DNA of 64,000 nt from Nitrosopumilus sp. (GTDB lineage: Archaea; Thermoproteota; Nitrososphaeria; Nitrososphaerales; Nitrosopumilaceae): positions 992,001 to 1,056,000 of the forward strand of contig OZ244651.1 in assembly GCA_965218695.1 (NCBI GenBank), written 5' to 3'. This document shows, in pieces, positions 6,750 to 39,596 of the stretch; position 1 is the stretch's first letter, and each line of letters opens with the position of its first letter. The position numbers and the translations under genes are program-made. The notes beneath the pieces were generated by a model that had not been told where the DNA came from, searched no databases, and worked only from the letters and a program-made list of their open reading frames with translations.

Positions 6750-7052
6750 CCTGACGATATAGCCACGATCGAACCCACTGTGGATGCCGGCACTGTTGTT
6801 GTTGTTGCCGTTGCCAACGGTGCATCCGGCGGCGACTTTGACGGGTCCGAACTCCAGACCCTCTGGACGTGGGGTGGCTATTCCCCCCAAGTTCATTAAT
6901 GATGTCGAATTCTTGGGCGCGTTTGGATTCTAGGGGACGACTGTCCCAGACTACTTCAAGGGATGGCAAAGTGGTTCATAGACGGCACGCTGGACAGGCA
7001 GAACCTAATCCGCGCCCTGGAATACTTGGAGGTGCAAGGACTGCTGAACTAA
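6750..7052 (+). pseudogene. Decayed 3' end of a large secreted/surface protein (thaumarchaeal C-terminal domain)
   Basis: Across frameshifts and a stop it reads LWTWGGYSP..INDVEFLGAFGF*GTTVPDYFKG-MAKWFIDGTLDRQNLIRALEYLEVQGLLN*. Confidence 0.55.
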
Positions 7053-7097
7053 GACTTGGTTCTTGCCCAAATGATGTGATACGATCAGGATCAAGCA

Positions 7098-7295
7098 TTA
7101 TAGAGAATCTTCATCTGATTCTGCTAATTTTTTGATTGCCAATCCTGCAACTAATCCAACAAACGCTCCCAAAGCCAGGCTACCCACCCAGGAATACTCT
7201 GGCTTATGCTGCATTTCTTCTCTTGCTTTTCTCAGTTTGTCATATTCTGTTTTTGGGATTCTCATGCTGACGTATTTTGGCTCAGATTCTTTCAT
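7098..7295 (-). CDS. Small protein with an RHH-like N-terminus and a C-terminal transmembrane helix
   Basis: KYVSMRIPKTEYDKLRKAREE followed by hydrophobic WVGSLALGAFVGLVAGLAI; TATA-like sequence at ~7318. Confidence 0.65.
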   Translation of the reverse strand: MKESEPKYVSMRIPKTEYDKLRKAREEMQHKPEYSWVGSLALGAFVGLVAGLAIKKLAESDEDSL

Positions 7296-7387
7296 GATGT
7301 TTTATGACCGTTCGTGTTAAATATATACTCTTGCTGCATGCAAATTAACATACAACATTTAAATGCTGGAGTCTGACACCAAGACGT

Positions 7388-7624
7388 ATGATATTTTTAA
7401 TTCTTGCCGGTGTTGCAGGAGGCTATTTGCTTGCAGAAGCATACAAAAAATATGCAACGCCACAGCAGAAGCAAAAATGGGAAAATTATGTCAAAACCCA
7501 TCATGGTGAAGCTGGCATGCTGATGACTGCGGCTGGTGTTGTAACCAAATCTCCCACCCTTATAGGATCAGGCGTTGGTTTAATGGTACATGACAGAGAC
7601 GATGCAAGAAAATGGTTTAGGTGA
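7388..7624 (+). CDS. Small membrane-associated hypothetical protein
   Basis: Hydrophobic N-terminus and Gly-rich hydrophobic C-terminal half; TTTAAATG about 30 bp upstream; divergent from 7098-7295. Confidence 0.65.
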   Translation: MIFLILAGVAGGYLLAEAYKKYATPQQKQKWENYVKTHHGEAGMLMTAAGVVTKSPTLIGSGVGLMVHDRDDARKWFR

Positions 7625-7745
7625 TTGAACCCATGACCTTACCCACGCTTAGCGTGACGGTCGATCCCTGACACTGCATGATCGAAAGGATCTAGTTAAC
7701 GGGTCATCTAGGCACATCTGGAAGGGTGGTGGCTACTGGGATAAT

Positions 7746-7884
7746 ATGACCAACGTGCCACAATCATGATTGACGACGAGGTGGACCGCAAAATAAGGGA
7801 GCACCGGGCCAGGTGACGCTGGAGGGCAACAAGGCATGCAGCTACTCTGCTGCCGTCAACGACCTGCTGACAGGGGGAGTCTAG
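7746..7884 (+). pseudogene. RHH-like mini-gene copy 1 (two 1-nt deletions)
   Basis: 139 nt versus 141 nt in intact copies; ATGACCAA-CGT and AGG-TGACG frameshifts. Confidence 0.75.
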
Positions 7885-7887
7885 GAA

Positions 7888-8028
7888 TTGGCCAAGCGCG
7901 CCACAATCATGATTGATGACGAGGTGGACCGCAAAATAAGGGAGCACCAGGCCAGAAAGATTCTGGAGCGCAACAAGGCATGCAGCTACTCTGCTGCTAT
8001 AAATGACCTGCTGGCAAGGGGCGCCTAG
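7888..8028 (+). CDS. 46-aa RHH-like protein, copy 2
   Basis: TTG..TAG: MAKRATIMIDDEVDRKIREHQARKILERNKACSYSAAINDLLARGA. Confidence 0.8.
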   Translation: MAKRATIMIDDEVDRKIREHQARKILERNKACSYSAAINDLLARGA

Positions 8029-8031
8029 GAA

Positions 8032-8172
8032 TTGGCCAAACGTGTCACAATCATGATTGACGACGAGGTGGACCGCAAAATAAGGGAGCACCAGGCCAGA
8101 AAGATTCTGGAGCGCAACAAGGCATGCAGCTACTCTGCTGCCGTCATCGATTTGCTGACAAGGGGCACCTAG
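8032..8172 (+). CDS. 46-aa RHH-like protein, copy 3
   Basis: MAKRVTIMIDDEVDRKIREHQARKILERNKACSYSAAVIDLLTRGT. Confidence 0.8.
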   Translation: MAKRVTIMIDDEVDRKIREHQARKILERNKACSYSAAVIDLLTRGT

Positions 8173-8175
8173 GAA

Positions 8176-8316
8176 TTGGCCAGACGCGTCACTTTCCTGA
8201 TTGATGACGGGCTGGAGCGCAGGGTGCGGGGGTACCAGGCCAGGAAGATGCTGGAGCGCAACAAGGCGTGCAGCTACTCTGATGCCGTAAACGACCTGCT
8301 GGCGGGGGGCGCCTAG
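8176..8316 (+). CDS. 46-aa RHH-like protein, copy 4
   Basis: MARRVTFLIDDGLERRVRGYQARKMLERNKACSYSDAVNDLLAGGA. Confidence 0.8.
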   Translation: MARRVTFLIDDGLERRVRGYQARKMLERNKACSYSDAVNDLLAGGA

Positions 8317-8319
8317 GAA

Positions 8320-8460
8320 TTGGCCAGACGCGTCACTTTCCTGATTGATGACGGGCTGGAGCGCAGGGTGCGGGGGTACCAGGCCAGGAAGATGCTGGAG
8401 CGCAACAAGGCGTGCAGCTACTCTGATGCCGTAAACGACCTGCTGGCGGGGGGCGCCTAG
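8320..8460 (+). CDS. 46-aa RHH-like protein, copy 5 (identical to copy 4)
   Basis: Same DNA sequence as 8176-8316. Confidence 0.8.
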   Translation: MARRVTFLIDDGLERRVRGYQARKMLERNKACSYSDAVNDLLAGGA

Positions 8461-8465
8461 GAATC

Positions 8466-8606
8466 TTGGCCAAACATGTCACAATCTGGATTGATGGCGA
8501 GCTGGATCGCAGGGTAAGGGAGCACCAGGCCAAGATGATGCTGGCAAGCAACAAGGCATACAGCTACTCTGCTGCTATAAATGACCTGCTGGCAAGGGGC
8601 GCCTGA
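8466..8606 (+). CDS. 46-aa RHH-like protein, copy 6
   Basis: TTG..TGA: MAKHVTIWIDGELDRRVREHQAKMMLASNKAYSYSAAINDLLARGA. Confidence 0.8.
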   Translation: MAKHVTIWIDGELDRRVREHQAKMMLASNKAYSYSAAINDLLARGA

Positions 8607-8840
8607 CGGGCGTTGTCCATGCATCCAATGTCTGGCGGTGACGCGTCCGGGACCGCCGGCGGCCAAGGGACAGGCTGCGGTGGACGAGTTTGTGGCGGTG
8701 CTGGCGTACGTGCTTGAAAACCAATAATTGCCCAGTTGTTCTGCTGGCCTTTCGAACAAATACGCCAATTCTTATAGTGGCAGTCAAATCCGTTGTCATT
8801 GCGACCATTTAGTTACTCAAATCACTGGTGCCGGTAACAC

Positions 8841-9746
8841 ATGTCGCTTACCAGCCTGCTTAAACAAAAGAAATACAGGGATGCCTTCGCAGAACACTTC
8901 CCCGTACCTATCTGTTCTCTTGATGGAGACCTTCTGGCACAACCGAAAACGAAGCGGTACTCCATGATCGGAACCGCGTTCGATTACCTTCTCAGATTCC
9001 ACCTCAAGCGAACGAATCCGGATGCGGAATCGCGCCAGTGGGTGGCCGAATCGGGTTTGGATGAGCTGCGTCTGATGAGCGGTGGATACGGGCGAAGGTT
9101 GTCTGATGGCAAGGCCGTAAAAGTAGACCTGAACGGATCCGTAAAGGACATTTTCGTGCCTGTCGATGAGGACGGCAAAATGGTATACAGGGAGCTCGGC
9201 TTGGCGCAGGCGGAGGAGCGTTACGCCAAGACGGTAGCCGATTACGAGCGGTTCCTCAGCGACGGCAACATGAACCGTGGCATGATGCGCGGCGCGCTGT
9301 TTCTGGCACAACTCGATCCTATTCTTCGCGCCGGCCGCGTGGTATTCTCGGACATCGACGAGAATGACGTGGACGATTTGTCAAATCTGCTGGGAGTCGC
9401 AAAGAATATCGACTCCTTCACGCGCAGGCAAAGGTGCACGCTGAATCCCGTATTCGGGAAAGCGTCCGTAATAGTGGGAGGTGCTGATGCAGACCTCATA
9501 CTGGGCGATACGCTGATAGACATCAAGACGACCAAGTTCCTGAAGCTGAAACAGGATATGTGGAGCCAGGTGGTGGGGTATTACCTGCTGGACATGATCA
9601 ACGGAAACGGATATGACATCAAGAACCTCGGCATTTACTTCAGCAGACACGGGGTGTTGCAGACGTTTTCAGTGGACGATCTGGGCGATGTGGGGGATTT
9701 TATGGATTGGTTCAAGGAAGAAGTGAAAAAAGACAAGCGCCGTTGA
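8841..9746 (+). CDS. PD-(D/E)XK nuclease superfamily protein
   Basis: GTAFDY N-terminal motif; GADADLILGDTLIDIKTT (D...DxK) followed by Q..GY, as in RecB-like nucleases. Confidence 0.75.
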   Translation: MSLTSLLKQKKYRDAFAEHFPVPICSLDGDLLAQPKTKRYSMIGTAFDYLLRFHLKRTNPDAESRQWVAESGLDELRLMSGGYGRRLSDGKAVKVDLNGSVKDIFVPVDEDGKMVYRELGLAQAEERYAKTVADYERFLSDGNMNRGMMRGALFLAQLDPILRAGRVVFSDIDENDVDDLSNLLGVAKNIDSFTRRQRCTLNPVFGKASVIVGGADADLILGDTLIDIKTTKFLKLKQDMWSQVVGYYLLDMINGNGYDIKNLGIYFSRHGVLQTFSVDDLGDVGDFMDWFKEEVKKDKRR

Positions 9747-9857: not shown

Positions 9858-10346
9858 TCAACCAAAGTCTGCAAGAAAGGTATCCTTGGTCGCCCCGTTT
9901 CGTTTCACGCCGTCCACCAAGTGGTCATAGTCCTCTTGGAAGCATATCATGTTCATGCTTCCCGGCCCGTCTATACCGGTCGCCTCCGGCTCGCCGATGT
10001 TCTCAGGTTTAGGACGCATGTCGAAGTAGACTCTGCGTATCTCATGCGACTGCCGGCCTAGTTTTTCCTTCAACTCCTCGACTAGCGGACCACCTGCCCA
10101 TTTGCCAAAGAAGTTACGCTTCTTGTGGCTGATCCTATGTCTACCTGTGCTTACTTCCACCAGAAGAAGGACATTACCTGACCCAAATACGAGATCGACT
10201 TCTCCCTTTATCGGATCTGGGTGATCCTGAAGTATTATGTTGGAACCTACCAAATCAAAACCCATGTCAGACAGCAAGTACGCAACTTTTCTCTCATGTC
10301 CATCATGGATCTGCTCTACACGTTCACGCGTTTCCTCGTCCAACAC
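9858..10346 (-). CDS. Putative restriction-endonuclease-like (PD-(D/E)XK fold) protein
   Basis: HERKVAYLL..GF...GEVDLVF...LLLVEVS; the catalytic Lys position is Ser. Confidence 0.55.
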   Translation of the reverse strand: MLDEETRERVEQIHDGHERKVAYLLSDMGFDLVGSNIILQDHPDPIKGEVDLVFGSGNVLLLVEVSTGRHRISHKKRNFFGKWAGGPLVEELKEKLGRQSHEIRRVYFDMRPKPENIGEPEATGIDGPGSMNMICFQEDYDHLVDGVKRNGATKDTFLADFG

Positions 10347-10772: not shown

Positions 10773-12298
10773 GTAAGTGTTCACGTCGTGCCTAATTCAG
10801 TTCACTCTTGGGTAAATTTTGTGCAAACCACAGATCCAAATAGGATGGTAATCCAAACCCAATGTGAAAAGCCAGGCTGAACTCAAAAAGATGTACACGG
10901 ATCTCAAGACTGAGAACATCAAGCTCAAGCAGACGATTGAGATGCAAGGGCAGATAATTGAGGAATTGAATCTGGCAGTTGCTGATCTTAAGCGCAGGCT
11001 GGTGCGGCATGACAATTACAACACCCCGTCATCACAAAAAAGGGGGCCCGGATGGCCTGACACAAAGGGAAAAGGCGACGAAAAGAATGCCTACAATAAA
11101 TCCACAAAAGCCTCCCGGGATCAAAAGGACCGCGTGGATGCGGCCGGCAGCGGGAAGTCGCGCGGGGGGCAAAAAGGCCACATGGGCCGCACCCGCAAGC
11201 CAAAACCCACCGAGTTTGAGGAACACACCCCGGAGGCCTGCCCCGAATGCGGCTCGGGTAGCCTTTCCATAGTGCAGTCAGAAAAACGCGACATTACCAG
11301 AGTGGAGCGCACGATAAAGGTCATCACCACGCGCCACACCATAAACACGTGTCGCTGCTCCTGCGGTCTGGTGGACATCAAGCCCGAGACCGGCCTTCCA
11401 GACAAGGGCAGCTACGATCCGAGCATAACGACTGATGTTGCAGACGATTACGTGTGTCGCATGCCGTTTAGGATGATCGCAGACCGCATGTCGCGGTACG
11501 GAATTACACTCTCCTCGGGCACGGCGCACAACATAATGCGCAGGCTGGGAACGTCGCTGGGCGCCCCTGCGGCAGCCATTGCCGCCATGATACGCAAGGC
11601 CAAGATACTGCACGCCGACGAGACATCGATTCACCTAAACGGCCGCAACGTCTGGGTGTGGATACTGCACGATCCGCTGACCGGGCACGCGCTGTACGTG
11701 ATACGGGACAGCCGGGGGGCAAAGGTTCTGAAAGAAGCGCTTGGGGGTTGGGACGGCACGTTAGTGTGCGACGGCTGGACGGCGTACGGAAAATACCGCG
11801 TCCAGCGCTGCTGGTCGCACATAATACGCGAGGCCAGGGACATCTGCAACCGCAATCCGGACTGCCCAGGCGCGCGCAACGTCCTGAAGCACCTGCGCAT
11901 AATCTATGATTATGCCAGAAGGGCAAGCAGGAAACGCTCGCGCTCTCTCCGGGACAACGCGTCTGCCATGCTGACGTCATGCATCGAAAAGATCGTTGCA
12001 AGGTACGCCGACGATCCAATATTGGAAAAATTCATGGTCAAGATCAGCAATGCTGGCAGCGACCTGTTCCGGTTCGTGCTGAACCCAAAGATCCCGCCTA
12101 CAAACAATGCTGCAGAACGCGGGTTGCGCGAGATAGTCGTGCACAGAAAAATACGGGGCAGCATAAGGGCAGAGGAGACGATGACGTGGATGGCGAATTT
12201 CTTTTCATGTGTAATGACATGGAAAAACAAGAAATTGGATTACTTGGCGGAGATTGCAAAATACGCCTAAAAATGAGTTAAACCACGTGAACACTTAC
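10773..12298 (+). mobile_element. IS66-family element (single-ORF, ISBst12-like), copy A
   Basis: 14-bp TIR GTAAGTGTTCACGT / ACGTGAACACTTAC; 1526 bp; no target-site duplication visible. Confidence 0.95.
10864..12270 (+). CDS. IS66 transposase
   Basis: Coiled coil, NTPSS, GGQKGH, CPECG, HADET, DGW, QRCWSH, TNNAAERGLR. Confidence 0.95.
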   Translation: MKSQAELKKMYTDLKTENIKLKQTIEMQGQIIEELNLAVADLKRRLVRHDNYNTPSSQKRGPGWPDTKGKGDEKNAYNKSTKASRDQKDRVDAAGSGKSRGGQKGHMGRTRKPKPTEFEEHTPEACPECGSGSLSIVQSEKRDITRVERTIKVITTRHTINTCRCSCGLVDIKPETGLPDKGSYDPSITTDVADDYVCRMPFRMIADRMSRYGITLSSGTAHNIMRRLGTSLGAPAAAIAAMIRKAKILHADETSIHLNGRNVWVWILHDPLTGHALYVIRDSRGAKVLKEALGGWDGTLVCDGWTAYGKYRVQRCWSHIIREARDICNRNPDCPGARNVLKHLRIIYDYARRASRKRSRSLRDNASAMLTSCIEKIVARYADDPILEKFMVKISNAGSDLFRFVLNPKIPPTNNAAERGLREIVVHRKIRGSIRAEETMTWMANFFSCVMTWKNKKLDYLAEIAKYA

Positions 12299-12303
12299 GA
12301 AAA

Positions 12304-12647
12304 TTATTTAAGAACGCTATCATGCATGGTTTTCGATTTGCGTGTGTAAGACCTCCGACGTGTTGTTGTAGATGACTTGTTAGTTGCTGTATTGCTGTTC
12401 TGATAATTCTTGAATTCATATTCTGCTTCGTACACTAATCTCAAAATCTTGTCAGTAAACTTCAGTGTGAGTTCTACACGTGCCTTATCCGGCGGTTCAA
12501 CTTTATGAGTAGTTCTGTCTCCGTTTGTCCGTATGATGTTTGCCATGTCTTCCAAGGCAGGAGTAATATATCCAAGATTTTTTAGATGGTCTATATGCCC
12601 CACAAAATCCAAACTTTCTTCCGCTCCTTTGTCAACCGCCACATGCA
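12304..12647 (-). pseudogene. DUF4145-like protein, C-terminal fragment
   Basis: IDHLKNLGYIT...IIRTNGDRTTH resembles the DUF4145 (HEPN-like) RxxGNxxxH motif; 5' end cut by IS630. Confidence 0.6.
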
Positions 12648-13945
12648 TAGTAGACGACAGAATGTTTCGCTCATTTTGCCATGAGTGGCAAGTACCTGAT
12701 ATTCAAATTAAAACCCCGCCAGGACGACACGGCGTAAGCATGGTCCAAATGGTTTTGGTGCAAAAATTCCCGTGAAGATCCTTACGGCGTAAGGTACTTC
12801 ATGAGTTTGACGGGTTTCATCTCGCCTGTTCTGATTATTCTCTTGACGGCGCCTGCAACCTCACCTGTAGTCTTGAACTGCCTTCCGGCAAGTATTCTCT
12901 TGAGCACCCTCCACTGGACCTCGATGGGGTTGAGCTGCGGGGTGTACGGCGGGAGGAATATCAGCCGCACGTCTCCTCCGGTGCCCTTCACAAAATTCTT
13001 CACCGTATCCGTCTTGTGATATGACGCGTTGTCCAAAACCATGACGAATCTTCCGTACGTCCGGCGCATGTCTTTTAGGAAATCTACGAACGTTTCGGAG
13101 TTTGTGGACTCGACTTCTTTTGCGTGGATCCGGCCCAGGGCCAGCGCGCCAAACATCCGGACTGATCTCGTGCTGAACTTGACGCTTACCGTGCCTCTGC
13201 CTCCTATGGGCCTCCACCCGTATCCGGCGCCTGCCCCCAGCTGGACTGCAGCCTCGTCTCCTGCAAGCACGGCGTATCCGCGTGAAATTACGCCCAGGAT
13301 CGTTCTTTTTGTCTTCTCCTTGAATTGCTCCTGCTCCTCGGTCGTGGCAGACTTGCGGGGCGCGGGCCGGGGTTTTGTGTATGAGAACCTGATCCGGTGC
13401 AGTGCCCGCTGTAGCGTGCGGATGCAGCCGAATGCGCAGATCCTGCTCCTGATTGCGTCGCGCACCATGCCCAAGCTCCACGACGCGGATGCGAATCCGA
13501 ATTTGGACGGATCCTCGTACAGTCAGTTTCTTATCATCCTGACTGTGTGCTCGCCCAGTATCCTCTTTCTCCCGGTTGACTTTTTGTCAAACCTGCCGTT
13601 CAATCCATCTTGGACGAGCCGCACGAGCCACCCGCGGATGGTGGAGTACGGCCTCATCATGGAGCCGGATATGGCGCGCAGGCTCATTCCGTCTTTTCTC
13701 TTGCAGCACGCAACCAGTATGTCGCGCGCCTTGCCTGACGGCGTTTGGGAAATCATCCGGCGGATCTTGTCTTGGCTCACGTCTTGCAGGAATTGGTCGC
13801 CTTTGGGCAGCCTGTCATTCTTGTATGGCGTGTTTGAGAATATCACCCAGATTTTCAGCACGTTCTGGGATCAAAATCTTTCGGTGGGAAATAACACCCA
13901 CTCAATTTACGCGCTTAAATGATCGAAACATTTTGTCGTCCACTA
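12648..13945 (-). mobile_element. IS630-family element
   Basis: ~29-bp imperfect TIRs TAGTAGACGACAGAATGTTTCGCTCATTT / TAGTGGACGACAAAATGTTTCGATCATTT, flanked by TGCA on both sides. Confidence 0.9.
12782..13861 (-). pseudogene. IS630 transposase interrupted by an in-frame TGA at 13523-13525
   Basis: HTH ORF and DDE ORF (GDEA, DNASYH, LPPYTPQLNPIE) share one frame: ...IRN*LYEDPSKFGF... Confidence 0.85.
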
Positions 13946-13949
13946 TGCA

Positions 13950-14037
13950 TAGTAGACGACAGAATGTTTCGCTCATTTTCCTTTGAATTCATGCCTGATT
14001 TTGCTGGATAATGAGCGGATCATTATGTCCGGTACTA
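13950..14037. mobile_element. 88-bp MITE-like element sharing ends with the adjacent IS630
   Basis: Begins TAGTAGACGACAGAATGTTTCGCTCATT, ends AATGAGCGGATCATTATGTCCGGTACTA; flanked by TGCA. Confidence 0.75.
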
Positions 14038-14041
14038 TGCA

Positions 14042-14861
14042 TAGTAGGGCCTGGTTTGAGCTTTTTGTCTGCTATCGCCATAAAATTAGTGGCATATCCA
14101 GCATTGCCATTTGCACATGTATCTTTGAAAATCTTTTTACTAATAGAGGCCATTTGCTTTTGCATATTTTTGGTCGTGTCAAGCGGTTTAAACATGGCAT
14201 ATCCTTCTTTGCCGCCTTCACGCGTATTGCCTGTAAACGGTGGATTCATCACGATTACGTCAAAGAAATCGTTCGGTATGTCTGGATTGTAATAAGCATC
14301 CGTTCCCTTGCCGCGTATCGTTTCACCCTTCTTGTCAAACGTGATCTTGTCCAATATCAGATTGAGTGAACCCAAATGGCATACTTTAGCCTTCATTCCA
14401 AACCATGCCACTTTCACATTAGTTTGCTCAAACAGTTTTTTTGGGAAAAAATTTGCCAATGATGAAGCTGTCAGGTGGGTAGCACTTGGCAGTACATCCG
14501 CACCATACATGCATTTTTCCATCATCTTGTCATGGATCATCTCCATGTTGCCGCCGTTTATCTCATAATTTTGGATCAAATTCCTGTACAGTGAAGTCAG
14601 GAGAGTGCCTGTCCCGCATGCAAAGTCGGCGCACCTTACAGACAGCATGGATTTTTCGTTTTTGTAAACGTCCGCACTGATCGGTGGAGTCACGATGGAT
14701 GCCAAAAGTGCGGCTGATTCGGACATTGTATAAAATGATGCGAGTGCTTTACGATCGCTTATCATGCGTTGTATGAGCGAGCCATACATGTCGGTGGATT
14801 GCAGCAAACCCATCCTGCCTATGCGGCTGGTCGTCTGTACCAGTTTGTCAATTATTATCAT
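14042..14861 (-). pseudogene. Internal fragment of an N6-adenine DNA methyltransferase (type IIG-like R-M)
   Basis: ASFYT, DFACGTG (motif I), NPPF (motif IV), KLKPG; truncated at both ends. Confidence 0.85.
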
Positions 14862-29401: not shown

Positions 29402-29726
29402 TTAATTCGCCACGCACTCGGCATAGTTGGCATTTAGTCGTATTTTTCTGATTTTATGGCCCAAACCGGCAAGATGGGAGGGATTACTCATGAGTTCTAT
29501 TGGAATATCTTCCCCAATGAGTCCTCGGATACCAGATTCAAGTTCTGTCGATTCATCCTTGTCAACGGTTATGGTTAAAAGTCCAGTAGATGAGCCGATA
29601 TAAACTTCCAATAGTGGGAGTTCACTTTCCACCAAGGCGGATGCTGCGTTAATCATCTGTTCTTTTAACTGTGAGTCAATTTCTACGGTTGGGCCAGGAG
29701 GAACTATTGTATCTAATTGTGCAAAC
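29402..29726 (-). pseudogene. Gene fragment between IS5 and IS66
   Basis: Open frame running to the IS66 end; low-GC composition. Confidence 0.4.
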
Positions 29727-31252
29727 GTAAGTGTTCACGTGGTTTAACTCATTTTTAGGCGTATTTTGCAATCTCCGCCAAGTAATCCAATTTCTTGTTT
29801 TTCCATGTCATTACACATGAAAAGAAATTCGCCATCCACGTCATCGTCTCCTCTGCCCTTATGCTGCCCCGTATTTTTCTGTGCACGACTATCTCGCGCA
29901 ACCCGCGTTCTGCAGCATTGTTTGTAGGCGGGATCTTTGGGTTCAGCACGAACCGGAACAGGTCGCTGCCAGCATTGCTGATCTTGACCATGAATTTTTC
30001 CAATATTGGATCGTCGGCGTACCTTGCAACGATCTTTTCGATGCATGACGTCAGCATGGCAGACGCGTTGTCCCGGAGAGAGCGCGAGCGTTTCCTGCTT
30101 GCCCTTCTGGCATAATCATAGATTATGCGCAGGTGCTTCAGGACGTTGCGCGCGCCTGGGCAGTCCGGATTGCGGTTGCAGATGTCCCTGGCCTCGCGTA
30201 TTATGTGCGACCAGCAGCGCTGGACGCGGTATTTTCCGTACGCCGTCCAGCCGTCGCACACTAACGTGCCGTCCCAACCCCCAAGCGCTTCTTTCAGAAC
30301 CTTTGCCCCCCGGCTGTCCCGTATCACGTACAGCGCGTGCCCGGTCAGCGGATCGTGCAGTATCCACACCCAGACGTTGCGGCCGTTTAGGTGAATCGAT
30401 GTCTCGTCGGCGTGCAGTATCTTGGCCTTGCGTATCATGGCGGCAATGGCTGCCGCAGGGGCGCCCAGCGACGTTCCCAGCCTGCGCATTATGTTGTGCG
30501 CCGTGCCCGAGGAGAGTGTAATTCCGTACCGCGACATGCGGTCTGCGATCATCCTAAACGGCATGCGACACACGTAATCGTCTGCAACATCAGTCGTTAT
30601 GCTCGGATCGTAGCTGCCCTTGTCTGGAAGGCCGGTCTCGGGCTTGATGTCCACCAGACCGCAGGAGCAGCGACACGTGTTTATGGTGTGGCGCGTGGTG
30701 ATGACCTTTATCGTGCGCTCCACCCTGGTAATGTCGCGTTTTTCTGACTGCACTATGGAAAGGCTACCCGAGCCGCATTCGGGGCAGGCCTCCGGGGTGT
30801 GTTCCTCAAACTCGGTGGGTTTTGGCTTGCGGGTGCGGCCCATGTGGCCTTTTTGCCCCCCGCGCGACTTCCCGCTGCCGGCCGCATCCACGCGGTCCTT
30901 TTGATCCCGGGAGGCTTTTGTGGATTTATTGTAGGCATTCTTTTCGTCGCCTTTTCCCTTTGTGTCAGGCCATCCGGGCCCCCTTTTTTGTGATGACGGG
31001 GTGTTGTAATTGTCATGCCGCACCAGCCTGCGCTTAAGATCAGCAACTGCCAGATTCAATTCCTCAATTATCTGCCCTTGCATCTCAATCGTCTGCTTGA
31101 GCTTGATGTTCTCAGTCTTGAGATCCGTGTACATCTTTTTGAGTTCAGCCTGGCTTTTCACATCGGGTTTGGATTACCATCCTATTTGGATCTGTGGTTT
31201 GCACAAAATTTACCCAAGAGTGAACTGAATTAGGCACGACGTGAACACTTAC
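29727..31252 (-). mobile_element. IS66-family element, copy B (transposase 29755-31161)
   Basis: Inverted near-identical copy of 10773-12298; identical protein, two nucleotide differences spotted; no TSD. Confidence 0.95.
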
Positions 31253-39438: not shown

Positions 39439-39486
39439 TGAGAGTGTTACATACAGGGGGTATTAGAGTTTTAAAATTTGGATAAA

Positions 39487-39561
39487 CGGACCCGACCGGA
39501 TTTGAACCGGCGACCTAACGCTCCGCAAGCGTTCGCACTATCCAAGCTATGCAACGAGTCC
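39487..39561 (-). tRNA. tRNA-Arg(GCG)
   Basis: Reverse complement GGACTCGTTGCATAGCTTGGATAGTGCGAACGCTTGCGGAGCGTTAGGTCGCCGGTTCAAATCCGGTCGGGTCCG folds as a cloverleaf with anticodon GCG. Confidence 0.95.
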
Positions 39562-39596
39562 GAATTGTGTGCATGGTTTGTGTTTAATTTGGATTG

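Follow-up and report, generated by a model that had tools for sequence, protein, structure and literature searches.

What kind of locus is a run of near-copies of a 46-codon reading frame, and how did it come to stand in the compact genome of an ammonia-oxidising archaeon? The question is raised by a stretch of 64,000 nucleotides (nt) of Nitrosopumilus sp. (contig OZ244651.1, positions 992,001 to 1,056,000; hereafter the window), in which six units (u1–u6; Table 1) lie head to tail between window positions 7746 and 8606. An earlier reading made from the letters alone (hereafter the original prediction) took them for diversified genes of the ribbon-helix-helix (RHH) type. We conclude, with a probability of about 0.7, that the array arose by tandem amplification, within one lineage, of a gene for a small RHH DNA-binding protein. 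This reading is carried by the anatomy of the array, its single-copy ancestry, the membership of the units in a protein family, their predicted fold and moderate purifying selection. The array itself is real and well defined and was amplified in one lineage, and its fold and coding status are reasonably supported; the idea of a repertoire of specificities is possible, and a mobile-element context is not supported.

Tandem Repeats Finder returned a 144-bp tandem repeat at 7752–8604 with 5.9 copies, 87% matches, no indels and a score of 1093, a repeat much stronger than chance would produce. Together with the ORF (open reading frame) list and an alignment of the six units, this confirmed the predicted structure of six units of ~144 bp, with u2–u6 as intact 46-codon ORFs that start with TTG and end with TAG, or with TGA in u6. 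Each stop is separated from the next TTG by GAA (3 nt), or by GAATC (5 nt) before u6. The residues originally assigned to alternate positions of a DNA-reading strand also proved correct on re-reading (R-T-M in u1–u3, R-T-L in u4 and u5, H-T-W in u6): the units differ at positions 4 and 8, keep the motif SYS..(I/V).DLL, and remain hydrophobic at the core positions V5, I7 and I9. The first unit is dead. Its ATG aligns with the start of a single-copy gene in the sister genome G002, a TGA follows after seven codons, and it is best read as having suffered two 1-bp deletions, one after the ATG and one near 7812, the placement of the first being a reading of the alignments; no indel is found in the 690 nt of u2–u6. 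The identical u4/u5 pair appears to be the most recent duplication. CCTAGG palindromes lie at the unit junctions 8024, 8168, 8312 and 8456 (u2/u3 to u5/u6), each with the stop TAG inside, and these are four of the six CCTAGG sites in the 64-kb window, where 9.7 would be expected by chance. On the minus strand, ORFs antisense to the array (7708–8091 and 8457–8768) are broken in units 4–5. In u2 and u6 the codons GCT ATA AAT (A-I-N) form CTATAAAT at 7998–8004 and 8576–8582, 34 nt before the next unit start in u2 and ~30 nt before the start of the following 'B' region in u6, the other units reading GCC GT(C/A) A(A/T)C at these codons; CTATAAAT is possibly an internal promoter, or a coincidence.

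Nothing obvious marks the array as an assembly artefact. In the public runs X1, X2 and X4, short-read contigs that match at 100% run across the u1/u2, u2/u3 and u5/u6 junctions, as do contigs of X1 and X4 across u3/u4, and an X2 contig that matches 8291–8464 at 100% reads from the end of a u4-type unit into a second, complete one. These runs may come from the source sample, and among the contigs listed none spans the whole array.

Relatives carry one gene where the window carries six units. In G002, the closest genome searched, the ortholog (92% identical) of the 78-amino-acid (aa) protein gene upstream of the array is followed by 129 nt and then by one ATG-start RHH gene, and the block shared with the window (6846–7882) is 87% identical. 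A contig of a related strain (X6) joins position 7726 to 8467, leaving a single unit, and then continues like G002. Among 150 further genomes of this genus, none had adjacent copies at E ≤ 1e-16, and the closest pair was 1.2 kb apart, in G002; a tandem copy was seen at none of 20 and none of 29 fetched loci; and in metagenome contigs the DNA pattern of the unit junctions had no match and a protein-pattern scan gave 18 loci, all of them single copies. Because G002 and the related strain have one gene at the same locus, we regard the array as a lineage-specific amplification. The units are mosaic, with 5′ halves 92–94% alike among u1, u2 and u3 and a 3′ half of u2 that is 91% like u6, and this, together with the identity of u4 and u5, points to unequal crossing-over and gene conversion. 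In the scenario that we propose, an ancestral ATG-start gene of 46 codons, ~130 nt downstream of the gene for the 78-aa membrane protein, would have been expanded by these processes to six 144-bp units, of which the first would have kept the old ATG and flank and then died, while units 2–6 stayed intact.

The case for coding is made by the pattern of substitution and not by the open frames, since random substitution at the observed divergence would leave all four distinct units free of stops with P ~0.40. The ratio of nonsynonymous to synonymous divergence (dN/dS, Nei–Gojobori) between units was 0.15–0.64, never above 1, at a synonymous divergence of 0.23–0.49. Binomial tests against neutrality gave P values of 0.003 for u2–u3, 0.02 for u3–u4, 0.08 for u4–u6 and 0.28 for u2–u6, so that the synonymous excess first taken as a mark of protein-level selection holds for the former two comparisons but is uneven across the array. 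Purifying selection on the units thus appears moderate. Codons 2–7, which precede an internal ATG, differ synonymously between units (AAG/AAA, CGC/CGT, ACA/ACT) and agree with the N-terminus conserved in relatives whose ATG stands at the TTG position, and on account of both we take the TTG to be the real start. In the public record of a 2.46-Mb contig, u2 and u3 (P0155 and P0156; window 7888–8172) are called as 39 residues from the internal ATG at codon 8, which cuts off the conserved strand; a 6-kb contig from another assembly has calls of 46 residues.

The units belong to a protein family for which an exhaustive profile search gave 461 representative clusters (E ≤ 0.001). Of 24 genomes from the same genus, 18 hold dispersed copies, 1–9 in each, and the 16 genomes searched from the order's other families hold none. 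By record title, 20 genome loci with relatives divide into 17 from Nitrosopumilus sp., two from Nitrososphaerota archaeon and one from archaeon, and the family appears, as far as searched, to be confined to one genus-level group of ammonia-oxidising archaea. The genome studied here has four further dispersed copies, 50–67% identical, and a remnant. These four full paralogs are 46-aa stand-alone genes with a TATA-like box 27–31 nt before the start, and one of them is a syntenic core gene that adjoins an 86-aa zinc-ribbon gene across the genus; most family members, likewise, are solitary genes with their own promoter. Conservation is strong in 59 distant representatives (R4 57, T6 57, R18 56, Q21 56, S33 56, S35 59, N39 50, M8 48), and in close array-type relatives (the syntenic gene of G002, P0003 and P0006) position 8 varies as well, being T. 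Among 49 distinct family promoters, at least 29 have a TATA-like box at −26 to −31. A C(A/C)CTAG-like element lies 48–55 nt before the start in 17 (loci L008, L014, L018–L020, L026, L034–L037, L039, L040, L058, L059, L062, L063 and L065), in a count that includes CACTAT and CAC[CA]AG, over related loci and with a motif defined after the sequences had been viewed; as a candidate operator it is only a lead. Literature searches on RHH proteins in Nitrosopumilus, tandem paralog arrays and archaeal tandem duplication turned up no description of the family or of such an array, and what emerges would be an unannotated, genus-wide family of 46-residue RHH-type proteins of which public calls miss members or misplace the start codon.

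Predicted structures agree with the RHH assignment. The AlphaFold2 (AF2) monomer of u3, built from an alignment of 11 rows, has a predicted local distance difference test score (pLDDT) of 87, with residues 1–10 extended and helices at 11–28 and 34–44, and the top Foldseek rows for it were NikR, TraM (TMq 0.76), ArtA, Arc, CdbA and MazE. In six records two domains of the family are naturally fused into a single chain (P0038, P0040, P0071, P0110, P0122 and P0135), and the model of P0038 (pLDDT 83; predicted template modelling score, pTM, 0.78) shows the strand-helix-helix order twice (E4–12, H13–30, H36–49 and E69–77, H78–95, H101–113), so that in u3 and P0038 alike the order falls within ~45 residues. 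As the P0038 model contains only two strands, these pair with each other. It matched chain 9f0x_E of the F-plasmid relaxosome, which we take to be TraY (Z 10.5, root-mean-square deviation (rmsd) 2.7, 98 residues aligned), and then 1u9p, a permuted form of single-chain Arc (Z 8.4, rmsd 2.1 over 81 residues), with AvtR, a viral regulator, at Z 6.4 and a long tail of single RHH domains behind it; Foldseek gave it a probability of 1.00 and an E-value of 3e-3. The family is thus predicted to have the RHH fold, and the claim of an RHH-type protein gains support from the u3 model and from the match of P0038 to single-chain Arc. RHH proteins usually have a G-x-S/T/N turn in which a small polar residue caps helix 2; here S35, invariant in all 59 representatives and in all units, and S33 stand at the start of helix 2, and glycine is absent from the loop. 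In the other five fusions the second domain has a two-cysteine insertion, C-A-x-x-x-C-E-[LM]-P, between the helices, possibly a metal or disulfide site.

Sequence models gave a fainter signal. No curated RHH model reached its threshold in Pfam or NCBIfam. Weak Pfam matches among 66 members were mostly to RHH families (three each to RHH_1, RHH_5 and VAPB_antitox, best E 6.7e-4 to 7e-3; BrnA in two), and one member matched the NCBIfam NikR model at E 0.046. The nearest ESM Atlas clusters were unnamed 47-aa proteins, one of them with RHH_6 in 17% of its members (score 0.89), which we treat as a lead only. A search of PDB sequences with the family profiles gave rows at chance level (NikR at E 0.18), and the likeness of the histone H3 C-terminus 'AKRVTIMPKD' (AKRVTIMPKD.L.RRIRGE) to family residues 2–22 (E 0.13) was set aside as a chance strand-helix look-alike.

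Several observations weigh against reading the array as an in-place amplification of functional RHH genes. With regard to the fold, Foldseek never reached E 0.001 for either the u3 or the P0038 model, so the structural check proposed for the units returned an RHH-like prediction without a match at E ≤ 0.001; none of four units matched any Pfam family at E ≤ 1 and u3 had no NCBIfam hit; and the fold evidence for the ribbon comes from P0038, a distant fused relative, and not from the window's own units. A prediction of a two-copy complex of u3 (66-row alignment) scored 0.29 against a mark of 0.42, in a run made with no controls, and counts neither for nor against a dimer. As for coding, stop-free frames are expected by chance about as often as stated above, constraint is weak in pairs that include u6, the array dN/dS mostly exceeds that of four dispersed ortholog pairs (0, 0.09, 0.22 and 0.63), the changes in u3, u4/u5 and u6 hit near-invariant family positions as expected of decaying copies, and a public annotation starts at the internal ATG; TTG starts with neither clear Shine–Dalgarno spacing nor a promoter of their own may also be poorly translated. 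The history of the locus, too, is not one of simple in-situ duplication. Synteny with G002 stops where the RHH gene stops, at the last unit; the junction ...GGCGCC TAG GAA TTG GCC... also precedes a solitary TTG-start copy at a different locus of G002 (L012); and in the 88-aa record P0006 two neighbouring units are read through, with a frameshift, across this junction. Three further contigs carry two different array-type proteins each (P0158/P0159, P0003/P0004 and P0005/P0160), the case that other arrays exist being built on such protein records sharing a contig and on the junction read-through of P0006.

If the array is such an amplification, how would it be expressed? Each TTG stands 3–5 nt after the previous stop and no unit has a promoter of its own, a motif scan having found no TATA-like box in 7625–7745 or from the 78-aa gene to u2, and the plus strand has no run of four or more T between 7395 and 9150; for these reasons we suggest that one transcript would run from the promoter of the 78-aa gene through the units. 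Units 2–6 would then most likely be translated by termination-reinitiation coupling, which occurs in archaea. The product would be an RHH monomer with an N-terminal strand KRVTIMI and helices at 11–28 and 34–44. By analogy with known RHH proteins, it would form a dimer whose two-stranded ribbon enters the major groove of DNA, with R4, T6 and residue 8 as its outward-facing alternate residues, and it would most likely act as a repressor or autoregulator. The array may raise dosage and supply subunits with an altered ribbon (M8L; R4H with M8W), some of which may be decaying. Co-transcription, coupling, dimerisation, DNA binding and a regulatory role are all inferred.

Why, then, is the array there? 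The original prediction saw an expandable cassette of specificities, kept because units that differ at DNA-reading ribbon positions would form dimers recognising several operators. The differences do fall at ribbon positions 4 and 8 over a preserved hydrophobic core, position 8 also varies among close relatives, three other contigs carry differing array-type copies, and the two-domain fusions show this family to tolerate pairs of unlike RHH halves; moreover, synonymous divergence between units resembles that of G000–G002 orthologs (0.08–0.63), which suggests that the units have persisted for about a species-level span. The family norm, however, is a single ribbon: its near-invariant R4, T6 and M8 argue for one conserved type of target. 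Of the six units one has died and two do not differ at all, no candidate operators are known for the variants, and dN/dS never exceeds 1, with too few sites at positions 4 and 8 for a test of positive selection. The changes L8, H4 with W8 and, in u3, I39, taken with dN/dS, appear to fit relaxed constraint at least as well as new specificity, and we hold the repertoire to be possible but unlikely. Its fullest form is more improbable still, namely a maintained, evolvable bank in which R-T-M, R-T-L and H-T-W homo- and heterodimers would have distinct operators and unequal crossing-over would tune their number, with the junction CCTAGG sites (akin to the C(A/C)CTAG element that 17 of the 49 family promoters carry ~53 nt upstream of the start) as periodic binding sites titrating, or silenced by, the array's own products. 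The opposite view, that the array is a neutral or decaying by-product of recombination in a region full of transposases, silent or irrelevant and with at most one functional unit, draws on the dead u1, on the altered near-invariant positions of u6 and u4/5, on frames that chance could have left open, on the insignificant constraint in u2–u6 and u4–u6, and on TTG starts that lack a promoter of their own. It sits poorly with the significant synonymous excess in u2–u3 and u3–u4, with the contrast between two indels in u1 and none in u2–u6, and with the retention of every family-invariant residue, the named changes apart, at 9–24% divergence, and we think it rather doubtful.

Two other explanations concern what the units might be joined to. 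Were they a regulator or antitoxin-like partner of the PD-(D/E)XK nuclease-like gene downstream, their role would be to control a module of defence or toxin type, or to neutralise it. That 301-aa ORF matches defence-system models (Table 1), lies in the same orientation 235 nt downstream with no run of four or more T on the plus strand between 7395 and 9150, and RHH proteins are common antitoxins and regulators, with which the weak VAPB_antitox (3/66) and BrnA (2/66) matches would agree. Yet it has no Pfam hit, homologs of it were found neither elsewhere in the genome nor beside the other family members fetched by then, the single-copy gene of G002 has different sequence downstream, and most family members are solitary with their own promoter. 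We found no toxin family among the neighbours of the array (Pfam, PADLOC), the dispersed copies being solitary, and confirmed no viral relative among 61 pattern matches in viral contigs, with two weak single-member hits to PHROGs among the 66 members; the antitoxin or anti-element bank that had been proposed finds no footing here, and a partnership with the nuclease-like gene is very unlikely. The units might instead be linked domains of one repeat protein read through TAG, given that TAG closes every internal unit, that the frame continues through GAA-TTG and that naturally fused two-domain relatives exist. We reject this, and give it next to no credence: TAG is an ordinary stop that closes 224 of 670 long frames in the genome (TAA 202, TGA 244), from which we take the units to be separate genes, the 5-nt spacer between u5 and u6 breaks the frame, and the dispersed paralogs are 46-aa stand-alone genes. 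Lineage-specific amplification of a small RHH gene thus remains our preferred reading of the locus.

Table 1. Features of the array and its immediate surroundings (window coordinates).
Feature	Position	Strand	Description
TATA-like boxes	7318, 7322, 7358 (7318..7363)	+	Found by motif scan ahead of the 78-aa gene; putative promoter of the entire unit
78-aa small hydrophobic protein gene	7388..7624	+	Conserved upstream neighbour; in G002 its ortholog is the gene just before the lone RHH gene
Intergenic stretch	7625..7745	+	Conserved; within the 87%-identical block shared with G002
u1	7744–7887 (from ATG: 7746–7887)	+	Decayed copy; ancestral ATG and upstream flank kept; frameshifted, early TGA at 7767
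u2	7888–8028	+	Intact 46-aa ORF, TTG, ribbon R-T-M; mosaic, 5′ half like u1/u3, 3′ half like u6
u3	8032–8172	+	Intact 46-aa ORF, ribbon R-T-M; N39I, where 50/59 family representatives have N
u4	8176–8316	+	Intact 46-aa ORF, ribbon R-T-L
u5	8320–8460	+	Intact 46-aa ORF, ribbon R-T-L; base for base the same as u4
u6	8466–8606	+	Intact 46-aa ORF, ribbon H-T-W; TGA stop like the G002 single-copy gene
'B' region	8607..8727	+	81–82% identical to sequence beside TTG-start RHH genes in L012 and L029
301-aa PD-(D/E)XK-like ORF	8841..9746	+	PADLOC PDC-S61 (E 1.4e-8) and RTasPDDEXK, associated with defence-associated reverse transcriptases (DRT) (E 2.1e-8); a neighbour of the array

Around the array, the 78-aa protein matched no Pfam family above threshold. 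Copies of the B region (~120 nt) are found in this and the sister genome (L012 4870–4996 and 5136–5260; L029 5075–5206). Their frame is open in all copies and ends in ...DEF..A.L.YVLEN(Q/A) and a stop (...VLENQ in the window), with last codons that differ synonymously and no conserved start codon, and the coding status of the region is uncertain. Record P0007 reads unit-B-unit in one frame, and the repeat in relatives may be RHH plus B. Beyond the 301-aa ORF, a minus-strand ORF of 162 aa at 9858–10346 is PD-(D/E)XK nuclease-like (DruK at E 0.019), with no Pfam hit and no homolog elsewhere in the genome.

The window begins with the trp operon (to 5036), and lysS, Elp3 and an antiporter gene follow from 31.4 kb. 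Between trp and lysS lie two identical inverted insertion sequences (IS) of the IS66 family, two DDE_3 transposases, one DDE_Tnp_1 and one DDE_Tnp_4 transposase, an N6 methyltransferase and housekeeping genes. The genes trpE and lysS stand 26 kb apart here, against 18 kb in G018 and 300 kb in G002. The original prediction placed the array inside an integrated element. Pfam found no integrase among the 35 ORFs of 1–36 kb, where there are six DDE transposases, no tRNA flanks the array (the only one, at 39486–39562, is 31 kb away) and the repeats found around it are IS copies; the surroundings are an IS-rich, rearranged, variable region and not a demonstrated integrated element. In G002, too, the array-type copies lie among transposases. 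The IS66-family transposase genes (10864–12270 and 29755–31161, inverted) bracket ~17.4 kb with transposases, the methyltransferase and housekeeping genes; their arms, at least 12025–12299 and 29726–30000, are 100% complementary, and the pair is a substrate for inversion or composite transposition. At 12643–14047, direct and palindromic repeats of 37–42 nt (ATGCATAGTAGACGACAGAATGTTTCGCTCATTTT...) flank a DDE_3 gene (12782–13474) and border on the methyltransferase gene, and are probably the ends of an IS.

The array is a real but modest curiosity, of putative function. It is of interest as a case in which a compact archaeal genome is caught in the act of making new genes by tandem amplification, with a dead founder, a base-identical newest pair and mosaic units, while the fused two-domain relatives show where such arrays can end. 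Very few regulators of ammonia-oxidising archaea have been characterised, and the family adds unannotated RHH candidates. If its variants bind different sites, the locus is a natural experiment on the evolution of RHH specificity; if they do not, it is a tidy case of neutral copy-number turnover.

How does the family compare with known systems? With the RHH superfamily (Arc, MetJ, CopG, the NikR N-domain, omega, ParG and many type II antitoxins) it shares a length of ~45 residues, the strand-helix-helix order, alternating polar and hydrophobic residues in the strand and a conserved serine at the start of helix 2, as well as predicted structural matches to NikR, TraM, ArtA, Arc, CdbA, MazE, PutA, AmrZ, ParD and VapB domains; it differs in its long helix 1 (18 residues), its glycine-less loop and its lack of a Pfam or NCBIfam match at threshold. 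Tiny stand-alone RHH proteins are known from other archaea: two papers describe aCcr1 (58 aa, Sulfolobales) and CdrS (Haloarchaea) as transcription factors that repress a few promoters via short boxes (PMC9976878; PMC7617429), and one of these gives homologs of aCcr1 in Sulfolobales, Desulfurococcales and their viruses and plasmids (PMC9976878). We set these cell-cycle regulators beside the present family by description only, having seen no link of the family to division genes. Closest to the idea of an array are the single-chain tandem RHH proteins, namely chains E, F and G of the F-plasmid relaxosome, AvtR of an archaeal lipothrixvirus and engineered single-chain Arc, in which the RHH unit is duplicated in tandem and which the model of the fused relative P0038 matches (Z 10.5, 6.4 and 8.4 for 9f0x_E, AvtR and Arc). 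No polypeptide of the array holds two RHH units, TAG stops and the 5-nt spacer keeping them apart; in contrast to those chains, the units of the array are separate genes with real stops, six and not two, and unfused.

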